DNA of 64,000 bases, from the NCBI GenBank assembly GCA_963695555.1, contig CAVOGR010000007.1, positions 256,001 through 320,000 on the forward strand, given 5' to 3'. Every line of letters starts with the position of its first letter. Within the stretch, counting starts at the first letter, position 1. Below, one piece after another: positions 2,528 to 13,551 of this stretch. The position numbers were made by a program, and so were the translations under genes. The stretch is from an uncultured Gemmatimonadales bacterium. Lineage in GTDB: Bacteria > Gemmatimonadota > Gemmatimonadetes > Gemmatimonadales > GWC2-71-9. The notes under the pieces were generated by a model, which did no database searches, had not been told where the DNA came from, and saw only the letters and a list, made by a program, of their open reading frames with translations.

Positions 2528-3223
2528 ATGAGACTGACAATGTGCGGATACTATGTCGACAAACTATCGGGCCCGCGCCTCCGTCAATGCTACCAGATAG
2601 CACCGCCGCGCGTACAGCAGTACCTGGAAGCCGAGATTCAGTTTGTACTCGAACACCTCGAACCCCAAGACACTGTGCTGGAACTCGGGTGTGGATATGG
2701 TCGGGTAGCGGCGCGGCTCACGGAACCGGCTCGTCGTGTGGTTGGAATCGACACGTCTACCGAGAGCATAGCGCTAGCCCGCCAACTCTCGGGTGCCAAC
2801 CCGCGATGCGCGTTTCTGGTAATGGACGCGCTGACATTGGGATTCGACGAATCAATGTTTGACAAGGTCGTCTGCGTCCAGAACGGAATCTCTGCCTTCG
2901 GCGTGGACCAGGAGGCGCTATTGCTGGAAGCACTGCGGGTTGCCCGGCCGGGCGGCCAGGTCTTGTTCTCGACTTATTCAGAACGTTTCTGGGCGCATCG
3001 CCTCCAGTGGTTCGAGGCCCAGGCGGCCGTCGGCCTGATCGGAGCGATCGACTATAACAAGACGGGGAATGGGACAATCCTGTGTAAGGACGGCTTTCGC
3101 GCCGGCATCATGTCACCAGAAGCCTGGCACTCGCTCACGGCTGCTTTGGGGGTAGATGCCACCATCACCGAGATAGATGAATCGAGCGTCTGGTGTCAGA
3201 TTGCAGTGGGGAGTAGGGAGTAG
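2528..3223 (+). CDS. Class I SAM-dependent methyltransferase
   Basis: VLELGCGYG motif I, VGIDTS, FDKVVC, RVARPGG. Confidence 0.9.
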   Translation: MRLTMCGYYVDKLSGPRLRQCYQIAPPRVQQYLEAEIQFVLEHLEPQDTVLELGCGYGRVAARLTEPARRVVGIDTSTESIALARQLSGANPRCAFLVMDALTLGFDESMFDKVVCVQNGISAFGVDQEALLLEALRVARPGGQVLFSTYSERFWAHRLQWFEAQAAVGLIGAIDYNKTGNGTILCKDGFRAGIMSPEAWHSLTAALGVDATITEIDESSVWCQIAVGSRE

Positions 3224-3298
3224 GGAGTAGGGAGTGGGGAGGCGGAAAGGCAGAAAGTCTGAGAAGTCGGGAAGCGCTCGCAATGGAGGCATGCAGAC

Positions 3299-4816
3299 AT
3301 GAACCGACACGCGGCCGGTCTGGCCGGGCTCCTTGTGAGTCTATTCCTGTGCGCAACCCCCGCCCGCGCGCAGGCCACCATCGGCGGCGAGTGGCGGGAT
3401 GACGTGGCGGCGTTCGCGCGGCGGATCGTGGAGGCAGGCCTCACCCCAGGGATGGGAGTCGCAGTCTCCCAAGGGGACTGGGTCCTCTACTCGCAGGGCT
3501 TCGGCGTGGCCGACGCCTCCACGAGCAGGCCGGTCGATGAGGCAACAGGATTCTACATTGCCTCGACCACGAAGGCCCTGACCGCAACGGCAGTGGTGGT
3601 CGAGGCTACCAAGGGCACGATCGACCTGGACGCCCCGATCGACCGGTACGTTCCGGGCCTCACCTTCCGCGCCCCGATGGATGCGCACCGGGTGACCGTG
3701 AAGCAGTTCCTCACCATGACGGACGGGCTCGAAGACGGCGGACCGGTCGTGGTTCGGACCGCCTACACCGGCGACTTCACGATCCCGCTCCTCATTCGCC
3801 TCCTCGCCGGTTACGGGCCGGACCCGAACGGCACCGCGTTCTCCTACGACAACCTGCCCTACAACATCCTCGGCCTGGCCCTCGACCCGACTTCCGAGGA
3901 GGGTTGGAAGGACGCCGTGCGGCGGGACGTGCTCGATCCGCTCGGCATGCGGGAAACAAGCGCGCGTATCTCGTCGATGGACCCGGAGCGGATCGCGCTG
4001 CCCCACACGCTCGTTCCCGGCACGGGGTGGCGCCGAGCGCCGCTCGCCAAGGAGGACGCCAACCAACACGCGGCCGGAGGACACTTCGCCACCGCCCGGG
4101 ATCTAGCTCGCTTCGTCGCCGCCCACGCGAGCGGCGGCCTGCTCGAAGGACGGCGGGTGTTCCCGCGTGCCGCGATCGAGTCGACCCATGCCCAGCACGC
4201 CGTGCAGGACCGCGAGTTCGGCCCATACCACCGCTTCGGCTGGGGCTACGGCTGGGATCTTGGATCGTACGAGGGGAAGACCATCGTACACCGCTTCGGT
4301 GGGTTCACCGGCTATCGCAGCCACGTCTCGTTCGAGCCCGAGTCGGCGGTCGGCGTTGTCGTGCTGGTGAACGGCAGCGGCCCCGCCTCCGCGGCCGCGG
4401 ACCTGATGGCGACGTACATCTACGACCGGTTGCTCGGCCGCGTCGACTTGGCCCCAGAGTATGATCGGCGCCTCGCCGACCTCGACACGCGAACGGCGGA
4501 GCGCACCAAGGCGGCGGCCGACCACCTGGCCGAACGCGCCGCACGGATGGCACCCCTGCCCCACGCACTCGACGGCTACGCCGGCAGCTACCAGAACCCG
4601 AAATTCGGCGAGATGACGTGGCGGGTGGTGGCGGACGGGCTCGAGGTCAAGATGGGGGTGGCCGCAAGCCGTGCCGAAGTGTTCGACGCGGCGAAGGACC
4701 AGCTCCGGGTCGAGCTGTTCGGCGGAGGCAGTGTGGCGTCGTTCGAGTTCCCCGCGGGCGGTGGTCCGGCCACTGCGGTCACGATCCACGGGGAGCGATT
4801 CGAGCGGACATATTAG
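3299..4816 (+). CDS. Secreted serine hydrolase (class C beta-lactamase/S12 family) with C-terminal extension
   Basis: Signal peptide ending ARA; SxxK (ASTTK), FSYDN, AAGG, YGWD. Confidence 0.9.
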   Translation: MNRHAAGLAGLLVSLFLCATPARAQATIGGEWRDDVAAFARRIVEAGLTPGMGVAVSQGDWVLYSQGFGVADASTSRPVDEATGFYIASTTKALTATAVVVEATKGTIDLDAPIDRYVPGLTFRAPMDAHRVTVKQFLTMTDGLEDGGPVVVRTAYTGDFTIPLLIRLLAGYGPDPNGTAFSYDNLPYNILGLALDPTSEEGWKDAVRRDVLDPLGMRETSARISSMDPERIALPHTLVPGTGWRRAPLAKEDANQHAAGGHFATARDLARFVAAHASGGLLEGRRVFPRAAIESTHAQHAVQDREFGPYHRFGWGYGWDLGSYEGKTIVHRFGGFTGYRSHVSFEPESAVGVVVLVNGSGPASAAADLMATYIYDRLLGRVDLAPEYDRRLADLDTRTAERTKAAADHLAERAARMAPLPHALDGYAGSYQNPKFGEMTWRVVADGLEVKMGVAASRAEVFDAAKDQLRVELFGGGSVASFEFPAGGGPATAVTIHGERFERTY

Positions 4817-5089
4817 GCCAGCGCCGGTTTCATTAGCGATTCACCGTCTGCCACCAAGACTGCATCGAGGACTAGGGAATACCCTAGTGGACGTCCTCGT
4901 GCTGTTGACAGCGAATACCTCGCGCCGCAGTGTATGAACGAAGCGTCGCACGAGGGTACGACGATGAGAATGCGAGGGACCGAGTGGCGACCTGGTGACC
5001 AGTGCTCCGAGTCTGGCCGGGTTGCCGCTCGGTTTTTCCATTGTCTCGCCGCCTCATGAACACGTCACCATTTCGTAGGAGATACCACA

Positions 5090-6046
5090 ATGCCAAAGGC
5101 ACCAGAGGCCGAGTTTCTGACAATTGCCGCCATCCGGAAGCCGAAGGGCAGGCGTGAAACAGAATATCTATTCAACGAAAAGCAACGAATCTTCACCTTC
5201 CGGTCGAAATCGAAGACAGCGGCGGCAGCAGCGGAGCGGCTGAAGGAAGCCTTCGAGAAGAAGCGGCCGGTCAAGGCCCGGCTCGATTTGCGGAAGGGCT
5301 TCATTCGACGCATCTCCAAGCCGACGGCCAAGGAGCTGGGCCAGTTCGAGCGCAAGCGCACCTTCTTGGCGGACGCCGCGCGGCCGCGCCGGATCGAGGT
5401 CGCCAAGATCGATCCGACGACCTTCAACATCGTCGACCACTACCTCAAGCACCCGGTGTTTCGGCTCTGCCGCCGCGTGGTGCCGAGTTACAAGAGCGCC
5501 AAGAACATCTTCGACTTCTGCGCCAAACAATCGTGTCACTTGCCGGGACCGTACGACATCTCGCCGTGCATCCCGTTTCAGTACGTCCCGGACGGCTGTT
5601 ATGCACGGGCCCACAAGATGCGGTGGATCATCACCACCCGGTATCGCTACTGCTGCGACAAGGTGTTCAGCTTCGCCAACCAGGACGACGACTCCCTGGC
5701 GGTCCAGGCCAACAAGTGGGGCGGATGCTGTATCACCTGGTGGTATCACGTGGCGCCGCTGATCCGGGTGCGCATTCGGTTCTCCCGGCTGCGCAACCTG
5801 AGCGTGGTCCTCGCCATGGTGATCGACCCCAGCATGTTCGACAAGCCGGTGCTGCTCAGCACCTGGCTGTCGGCCCAGGAGAATACGGCCTGCCATCCCA
5901 ACGCCCACGTGTCGATGTACTCGATCCAGCCAGGATCGGCCTATTGGCCTGCCAGCTATGACGGCACCACGTTCGGCACCGATCCGACCTACACGTTGAC
6001 CGATGGGACACTCACCTCGTACCGGAACCTGGTGTCTTGTCCGTGA
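5090..6046 (+). CDS. Protein-glutamine glutaminase-like enzyme with N-terminal pro-domain
   Basis: CIPFQYVPDGCYARAHKMR (catalytic Cys), WWYHVA (His) and IDPS (Asp) match the Chryseobacterium protein glutaminase motifs as I recall them; RBS AGGAG upstream. Confidence 0.88.
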   Translation: MPKAPEAEFLTIAAIRKPKGRRETEYLFNEKQRIFTFRSKSKTAAAAAERLKEAFEKKRPVKARLDLRKGFIRRISKPTAKELGQFERKRTFLADAARPRRIEVAKIDPTTFNIVDHYLKHPVFRLCRRVVPSYKSAKNIFDFCAKQSCHLPGPYDISPCIPFQYVPDGCYARAHKMRWIITTRYRYCCDKVFSFANQDDDSLAVQANKWGGCCITWWYHVAPLIRVRIRFSRLRNLSVVLAMVIDPSMFDKPVLLSTWLSAQENTACHPNAHVSMYSIQPGSAYWPASYDGTTFGTDPTYTLTDGTLTSYRNLVSCP

Positions 6047-6074
6047 GGCGGAAAGGAAAGGAAGTGGGGTTGCC

Positions 6075-6350
6075 GTGAACGGGTCGAATAGGGCTGGCCG
6101 AGAACAGCCCCATTACCGGATCATGCAGGTTGCACAGGTCCGCGAGCCGGAGGGGGCGGACCACGTAGACGTCGTTTTCCTCGAGTCCGCCCGTTTCTAT
6201 CGCCTCATGAAGACCAATGCGACGTTTGCCGAGTCGTACGCGCTGCTGAGGGAGGCGCTGGCCAAGGGTGAGTTGCTCACGATCCGGTTGGCGTCGTTGG
6301 AAAGCGACGTGATCGAGGGGGTGGCGGCGGCAGGGGGTGAGGAGTCATAA
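6075..6350 (+). CDS. Small protein homologous to the protein-glutaminase pro-domain
   Basis: Gapless alignment with residues 12-65 of the upstream ORF (15/54 identical by hand count); GTG start at 6075 after a purine-rich RBS, alternative ATG at 6123. Confidence 0.75.
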   Translation: MNGSNRAGREQPHYRIMQVAQVREPEGADHVDVVFLESARFYRLMKTNATFAESYALLREALAKGELLTIRLASLESDVIEGVAAAGGEES

Positions 6351-6364
6351 AGGCGGGAAGGCGG

Positions 6365-6479
6365 AAGGCGGAAAGGACTGACGGCGGTTGGGCGGGTGGG
6401 CGGGTGGGCGGGTGGGCGGCTCGGGGTCTTCTGCTGTGACCATCGAACCGCCGAGCCGATCCGCCGCTTGTGAGGAGTG
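6365..6479. repeat. Dispersed repeat, copy 2, with expanded GGGCGGGT octamer
   Basis: Matches 2283-2385; seven G3 runs at 6390-6416. Confidence 0.9.
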
Positions 6480-12520: not shown

Positions 12521-13428
12521 ATGACGAACGCACAACAAGATTTCATACGAGCGCGGCAGCGCATGCTCGACCGGTATGGGGTCGAGGCTGAATCGCGCTT
12601 CGTGGACGTCCCGTCCGTCGGAGGGCGGGCTCACGCGCTGATCGCTGGCCAAGGACGGCCGGTGGTGATGGTCAGCGGGATTGGGACCCCAGGCGCCATG
12701 TGGGCTCCCTTGATGCCGGAACTCGATGGGCTCCGCTTGATCGCGGTTGACCTGCCCGCATATGGCCTGACCGACACCACCCCGCGGCTCGCCGACGACA
12801 TCCGGCAGAGCGCGGTCCGCTTCCTCACAGGCGTACTCGACGGGCTGGAATTGGATCGGGCGGCATTCGTAGGCAATTCGCTTGGTTCGCTTTGGTGCAG
12901 TTGGCTGGCACTCGATCGGCCGAAGCGAGTACGGGCGCTGGTGCATGTCGGATGCCCCGCCCTGCTCTTCGATACGTCCGCTCCGCTTCCGATGCGACTC
13001 CTATCGGTCCCGCCGCTGGGGCGGCTGTTGACCCGGCTCCAGCCGCCATCGCCGTCACAGGTCGCGCAGCTGAGCAAGATGGTCAAGGAACACCCGCTGG
13101 TCCCGGAGCTGGTTGACCTGTTGGTGGCAACCGAACGCCTGCCTGGCTATCGCGAAACATTCCTCTCCACACTCCATAAGCTGTTACGACTGCGCGGCAG
13201 TGGGCCGAAATGAGGCTGACGACCGAGCAGCTCGCGAGGATCGACCAGCCAACACTCGTGTTTTGGGGAGAGAACGACCCATTTGGATCCCGAACAGTGG
13301 GGGAACGCATGGTGGCCGCGATGCCGGCCGCAGAGTTCCATGTCGTCGGAGGAGGCCACGCTCCATGGTTGACCCAGGCGAGGGCCATTGGGCCGGTAGC
13401 ACGGCGGTTCTTGGAGCGTGAAGAGTGA
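12521..13428 (+). CDS. Alpha/beta-fold hydrolase, split by one frameshift near 13205
   Basis: GNSLG nucleophile elbow in 12521-13213; PTLVFWGENDP and GGHAPW in 13210-13428. Confidence 0.8.
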
Positions 13429-13551
13429 GGAGTAAGGAGTGGAAAGGGGGGAGTGGGAAGCGGGGAGTGGGTGGCGGTGGGTAGGTTTGCTGGTCGGTAA
13501 CTGCCTCAAACCGCTGGGAACGCACAATCCATCTCACACTGATGCTCGCAC

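Follow-up and report, generated by a model that had tools for sequence, protein, structure and literature searches.

A protein glutaminase (PG) encoded in the window, the whole 64,000-nucleotide stretch of DNA from an uncultured Gemmatimonadales bacterium that was analysed, carries glutamine (Gln32) in its own pro-domain where Chryseobacterium proteolyticum pro-PG has Ala47, and its gene is followed by a small gene for a stand-alone copy of the pro-domain that keeps alanine there. Gln32 is interpreted, from sequence comparison, as a natural counterpart of the engineered A47Q substitution that is probably deamidated once by the enzyme itself, after which the lid would be looser and not essential, and the Ala-bearing copy as a probable tight, lasting inhibitor; we regard this reading as evenly poised between right and wrong.

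The enzyme (P0001) is classed as a protein-glutamine glutaminase on its Pfam PF18626 domain (80 bits against a curated cut-off of 25, E 1.7e-22), its triad, and a pro-domain of the 3A56 fold. A sequence search of the PDB returned the protein glutaminases 3A54, 3A56, 2KSV, 2ZK9 and 8Z3I, and the AlphaFold model (pLDDT 92.3) matched pro-PG over both domains (Foldseek E 5e-20; VIA Z 27.5, 263 residues, rmsd 3.5). C170, H220 and D246 aligned to the pro-PG triad, numbered Cys156/His197/Asp217 in PMC4214742. The triad was invariant in the 121 closest sequences and intact in 119 of the 120 loci collected (39 from genomes, 80 from metagenomes and the window), the sole exception being a frameshifted gene. 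The score against the NCBIfam equivalog NF040782 was 107 bits, below its cut-off of 250. P0001 is present as a single copy in its genome, and the nearest named locus, at 94% identity, belongs to an uncultured Gemmatimonadales genome; in a sample of 400 further genomes of the phylum, this clade occurred in one and distant relatives in two.

Since only 10 codons are open upstream of the ATG, no signal peptide is hidden there. By a simple hydropathy screen rather than a dedicated predictor, a hydrophobic N-terminal window (11 residues above 2.0) was found in none of the 121 closest proteins, the value for P0001 being 1.06. The eleven cysteines of P0001, at least ten of them nearly invariant, occur in a clade without signal peptides. 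Such cysteines form disulfides in secreted PG; their presence here may point to redox control, to export by an uncommon route or to an enzyme that works after lysis. The linker of residues 107-127 is strongly kept in this clade, unlike a disposable cleavage linker, and may serve to keep the pro-domain attached. No sigma-70-like promoter was found, and terminator-like matches were at chance level. Sequencing runs contained at most 0.14 of the words. An RNA-library contig from a relative of about 91% identity spans 5060-6248; as DNA carry-over is possible, it is no proof of transcription or of an operon.

Table 1. Positions in the window of the glutaminase gene, the small gene and their main features.
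Feature	Position	Strand	Basis
Signal-less pro-protein-glutaminase P0001, 318 aa	5090..6046	+	Pfam PF18626; full-length fold match 3A54, 3A56, 8Z3I
RBS-like purine run TAGGAGA upstream of the glutaminase ATG	5075..5081	+	sequence
Cis pro-domain, about residues 8-89	5111..5356	+	profile match 3A54/3A56 residues 34-103; HHalign to small protein
Cis plug loop F28-N-E-K-Q32-R-I-F35 (= F43-Y50 of pro-PG)	5171..5194	+	profile alignment, HHalign
Gln32 codon CAA, Ala47-equivalent	5183..5185	+	profile alignment; clade counts
Clade-specific conserved linker (residues 107-127, the last being the invariant Cys127)	5408..5470	+	column counts
Catalytic Cys170 (= Cys156 of pro-PG)	5597..5599	+	alignment; invariant 121/121
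Catalytic His220	5747..5749	+	alignment, column counts
Catalytic Asp246	5825..5827	+	alignment, column counts
Gene for the stand-alone pro-domain (GTG start 6075, 91 aa; or ATG start 6123, 75 aa)	6075..6350	+	profile match 3A56 residues 34-91; fold match 3A56
Trans plug loop F-L-E-S-A-R-F-Y, Ala codon 6189-6191	6177..6200	+	profile of small proteins

The register of the plug loop was deduced from profiles, which were required because a single-sequence PDB search did not reach the pro-domain and left the small ORF unidentified. Positions 5168-5200 encode residues 27-37 of ORF 5090-6046, L-F-N-E-K-Q-R-I-F-T-F. In a profile of 120 homologues the stretch f-n-e-r-q-r aligned without gaps to F43-M-L-T-A47-Q48 of 3A56 and to F-M-L-T-Q47-Q of 3A54, an entry titled the A47Q1 mutant (domain i-E 0.014 and 0.0028, respectively), so that Gln32 falls on Ala47 in the one and on Gln47 in the other; the clade profile scored the 3A54 pro-domain higher (20.0 bits) than that of the wild type (17.6 bits). 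A profile of 35 small proteins placed F-l-e-S-A-R-f-Y on F-M-L-T-A47-Q-F-Y of pro-PG (3A56 residues 34-91, E 3.9e-5), with Ala on Ala47, and HHalign placed FLESARFY on FNEKQRIF without gaps (probability 96.6, E 5e-10). Both placements proposed in the preliminary description, Gln at the Ala47 position in cis and Ala in the stand-alone copy, were thus reproduced. Ala47 of pro-PG presumably lies over the active-site pocket, and pro-PG with A47Q reportedly gave substrate-like and acyl-intermediate complexes.

Gln32 is not an assembly error, since the 94%-identical P0003 and the same-genus G943 also have Gln, and across the 84 Gln loci the codon is CAG 70 times and CAA 14 times; nor is it a chance occurrence, since Gln was found in 97 of the 121 closest sequences, the others being E17, P3, A2, H1 and one gap. 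The cis plug of the 120 loci read Q84, E14, P8, A5, H3 and T1, with five unreadable, and both codons for Gln and both for Glu were in use. A set of signal-less relatives was prepared by removing 12 Bacteroidota loci whose N-termini look like signals, 5 loci that were broken or partial and a duplicate row of the window; the 223 rows then pooled were reduced at 97% identity. The 189 non-redundant sequences gave Q150, E22, P10, H4, A2 and one gap. On a tree built without the loop residues, parsimony assigned 24 changes to the plug site: 14 from Q to E, 1 from E to Q, 4 to P, 3 to H and 2 to A. At other Gln-rich columns, E accounted for 62 and K plus R for 92 of 246 changes (Fisher p 3e-4 and 3e-5 against the plug, tests that treat parsimony counts as independent, with ties given to the majority residue and the direction thereby biased toward Q-to-E). 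The exchange with Glu is not specific to the plug, as 26 of 29 Gln changes at column 25 of the same domain were also exchanges with Glu. An IQ-TREE quick tree of 104 loci gave 8 changes for Glu, at least 5 of them forced by strong branches.

The triad is intact in all 22 Glu-bearing enzymes, as are the ten further cysteines that were checked, which indicates that the product state is viable. They form 18 Glu-only clades, each shallow and of 1-2 rows. The excess of Gln (150) over Glu (22), together with Glu clades of at most two sequences, implies an advantage of Gln that a wholly non-essential lid would not explain. Across the family the site is more varied: 113 aligned pro-domains, drawn from 150 representatives plus the query, gave A35, Q33, P12, E11, 18 others and 4 gaps, with many of the Q rows being fragments of this clade, and a 117-row FastTree of full-length enzymes gave P38, A35, Q20, E9, T4, N4, S3, H3 and C1. 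In that tree Gln was the main state of one 33-row clade, secreted Bacteroidota enzymes included, and appeared separately in L157, L162, L181 and P0388. From these counts the plug site is concluded to be under selection and to admit only Gln-sized or small residues, with Gln itself dispensable. The preliminary description had named variability among homologues as a finding that would refute its reading, and the result was divided: Gln is the main residue and exchanges almost exclusively with E, P, H or A and never (0 of 24 changes on the signal-less tree) with K or R, but 38 of the 189 relatives, besides the one gap, do without Gln, 16 of them carrying Pro, His or Ala, which cannot be deamidated.

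The small ORF is a pro-domain homologue whose occluding loop is under selection, and is a candidate inhibitor. Its model (pLDDT 86) had 3A56 as best Foldseek match (TM 0.75, rmsd 1.7; VIA Z 11.8). No credible Pfam, NCBIfam or PADLOC family was found for the small protein, and it has no signal peptide. The likeness of the pro-domain to B subunits of AB5 toxins and to single-strand binding proteins was given no weight, the OB fold being a common one. The small gene lies downstream of the enzyme in 108 of the 120 loci; of the remaining 12, the downstream sequence is shorter than 230 bases in 7 and at least 2.4 kb long in 5. The trans plug was Ala in 102 of these 108 copies, with Ser, Gln, Thr, Val and Pro once each and one unreadable, and in 100 paired loci the trans loop read S in 99, A in 95 and R in 97. 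An earlier tally, in which 114 of 120 small homologues had Ala and 6 had Ser, was discounted, as the query alignment had been chosen by a motif that demanded Ala or Ser (plus one Gln case), and the counts used are those by locus; the profile used for detection was itself built mostly from Ala-bearing copies and may slightly inflate the Ala conservation given here.

In 76 non-redundant signal-less loci, pairwise identity of the four loop residues was 93.5% in trans and 57.5% in cis, while outside the loop the domains have diverged equally (41.2% in trans, 40.6% in cis). The trans Ala was kept in 73 of the 76, whether the cis residue was Q, E, P or H. These values support the earlier proposal that the Ala copy is the real inhibitor, as a prediction that is likely to hold. 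A search for longer proteins with the profile of the small protein gave no match; since PG pro-domains do exist, no conclusion was drawn from it. By eye, enzymes with a signal-like N-terminus were accompanied by small proteins that also have one and enzymes of the signal-less clade by small proteins without one, which is what partners sharing a compartment should show. An element of about 115 bases at ~2283-2385 is repeated at ~6365-6479, directly behind the small gene; intergenic repeats occur at 2023-2433, 3197-3249, 6365-6479 and 13402-13482 and include 7-base purine-rich tandem units.

The preliminary description had further proposed a division of labour, in which the free Ala copy is the counterpart of a Gln-bearing enzyme. 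A strict form of this was ruled out by loci with cis Ala and a copy and by Gln loci without one. Four of four Chryseobacterium-like loci, a sample from one Bacteroidota family visibly close to 3A56, combined cis Ala with a free copy, the plugs of those copies being Ala, Pro, Ala and Ala. L144 has Pro in both plugs, and L035, a secreted Chitinophagaceae pair at 3594-4924, shows the reverse pattern of cis Ala and trans Gln. No adjacent free copy was found at the Gln-plugged L033, L038, L039, L092, L157 and L162 (flanks of about 1.5 kb for L157 and L162). Five loci were followed into their draft genomes, for which no completeness is given: no free copy was found in those of L038, L039 and the Ala-plugged L026, that of L033 has one beside another paralogue, and that of L035 has the known adjacent copy. 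The free copy is therefore a family-wide partner that also accompanies Ala- or Pro-cis enzymes and is not present because of Gln.

The two genes form a compact unit that is patchily distributed across many phyla, a trait shared with toxin-antitoxin and defence cassettes. No conserved third gene was found among the 120 loci, no neighbour family occurred in more than 7, and neither protein matched a PADLOC defence model at E 0.01. In 5-7 loci a pair of small proteins with an FSGR motif and without an NCBIfam or PADLOC match lies near the cassette (L044:2123-3455; related ORFs in L001, L031, L058, L080, L103, L106 and L117). Frameshifts in the enzyme or partner gene of L001 (G943), L039 and L082 may be assembly errors or decay. 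A Pro-plug cassette in a Bathyarchaeia genome bin (L019) falls within a Chlorobiaceae-like clade, by transfer or mis-binning. Two PG proteins of about 1,090 aa (L125:1-1956 on the minus strand and L127:940-3348) seem to begin with a tandem of two pro-like domains and end in a long uncharacterised C-terminal region. In L134:502-1998 an additional domain stands N-terminal to the pro-domain; it has an HExxH motif, is possibly a metalloprotease and could be a built-in maturation protease.

In the proposed mechanism, the side chain of Gln32 would enter the enzyme's own pocket and reach Cys170. The pocket of PG is described as deep, negatively charged and fitted to the Gln side chain in PMC9396377. 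With an intact triad beneath it and a very high effective concentration, the Gln would most likely be turned over once to Glu, and the Glu product would bind the acidic pocket less well, giving a looser lid. Self-deamidation would then be an automatic maturation step with at most a short delay rather than a regulated switch, and genes that encode Glu would skip the conversion, which fits the repeated origin of Glu. Lasting control would be exerted by the free copy, whose Ala cannot react, binding at the active site. According to PMC13139226, the propeptide can remain bound to mature PG after cleavage, 4 M urea having been needed to remove it, and uncleaved Bacteroides helcogenes pro-PG (pro-PGB) was active at 1/17 of the mature activity. 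A possible second site of self-deamidation is indicated by the mature crystal chain 2ZK9, which has Glu where 2KSV and 3A56 show Gln135; this may reflect such a reaction in PG. The equivalent residue in P0001 is Gln147 (~5528-5530), kept in 113 of 121 relatives. Counting against the proposed mechanism are the five trans copies without Ala and the reversed pair L035, which a strict non-hydrolysable inhibitor does not predict.

Three other explanations were considered. The first, which we consider unlikely, is that Gln makes the lock better: it would occupy the pocket as a substrate that is slow or trapped, in a Michaelis-like or acyl-enzyme state, and would silence and shield Cys170 until the pro-domain is removed, with the Glu form also staying closed after any turnover. 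The preference for Gln over Glu and the exclusion of Lys and Arg would suit such a lock, as would the inactivity of pro-PGC and pro-PGF until cleavage, stated in PMC13465451; however, Glu alleles recur freely, and a cis loop less conserved than the trans loop is unexpected for an improved lock.

The second explanation, which takes up the idea of the preliminary description, is an activation switch or fuse, in which the Gln form is latent, self-deamidation takes the place of proteolysis in activating it, and the Ala copy re-locks the enzyme. It draws on the retention of Gln in most of the signal-less relatives, the shallowness of the Glu lineages, the separate appearance of Gln in Pro-plug and distant clades, and the lack of signal-like N-termini in the 121 closest proteins, so that these enzymes may never meet the extracellular proteases by which known PGs are matured. 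Against this, Glu is directly gene-encoded on about 14 occasions, and Pro, His or Ala on 9, in intact enzymes of the signal-less clade, Gln is common in secreted sister lineages too, and the free copy does not track Gln. An essential switch is not supported, given the relatives with Pro, His or Ala and the repeatedly gene-encoded Glu; the switch in general is judged decidedly improbable. No greater weight was given to its fuller version as a self-consuming fuse, in which deamidation in cis unlocks the enzyme without a protease, the Ala copy re-locks it like an antitoxin and the cassette spreads across phyla.

The third, that Gln is incidental at a site admitting small or Gln-sized residues and that the small protein helps in folding or export as a chaperone, or pairs with the cis domain, without inhibiting, would fit the varied family-wide site, the like toggling at column 25 and a hint of pairing in L125 and L127 (where the first pro-like domain is only a marginal match), but is held very improbable, as conservation in the free copy falls precisely on the occluding loop and hardly extends beyond it, and Gln at 79%, with both codons used, beside the freely varying positions 31 and 33 implies selection.

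The enzyme family and the A47Q mutant were already known; here a large natural clade carries that substrate-mimic plug. A literature search, with most subscription papers outside its reach, gave no account of a natural Gln plug, of a PG pro-domain being deamidated by its own enzyme or of a free pro-domain gene lying downstream. Protein glutaminase is sold for use in food, with one product marketed according to PMC13465451, and to produce it a tightly bound pro-domain has to be removed by proteolysis. The clade supplies natural Q, E, P, H and A variants with which to ask whether a pro-enzyme can free itself by deamidating its lid, and may be a source of enzymes that need no cleavage to work; as a candidate specific inhibitor, the free copy might be used to halt the PG reaction.

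Of known systems, Chryseobacterium proteolyticum pro-PG (EC 3.5.1.44; 3A56, 2ZK9, 2KSV) shares with P0001 the two-domain fold, the triad and the register of the plug loop, and its close relatives also carry a downstream free pro-domain. P0001 differs from it in having Gln for Ala47, no signal peptide, a longer conserved linker, an extra invariant Cys, a score below the NF040782 cut-off and a structural identity of about 28%. The engineered A47Q pro-PG (3A54, 3A55) has the same residue at the same position; here, unlike in the mutant, most members of a wide clade have Gln naturally, under selection and paired with an Ala copy. A free pro-domain copy acting in trans on its cognate enzyme, as predicted here, is found in the propeptide-like protease inhibitors, although these have another fold, act on another enzyme class and carry no substrate residue at the plug; for protein glutaminases the literature searched gave no such inhibitor. 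Such stand-alone inhibitors are of the MEROPS I9 type, and the propeptide-like inhibitor of Plasmodium SUB1 is said to be a free inhibitor of the pro-domain type. A precedent for activity with the pro-domain still attached is provided by pro-PGB (PMC13139226 and PMC13465451), which, unlike P0001, is secreted and is activated 17-fold further by cleavage.
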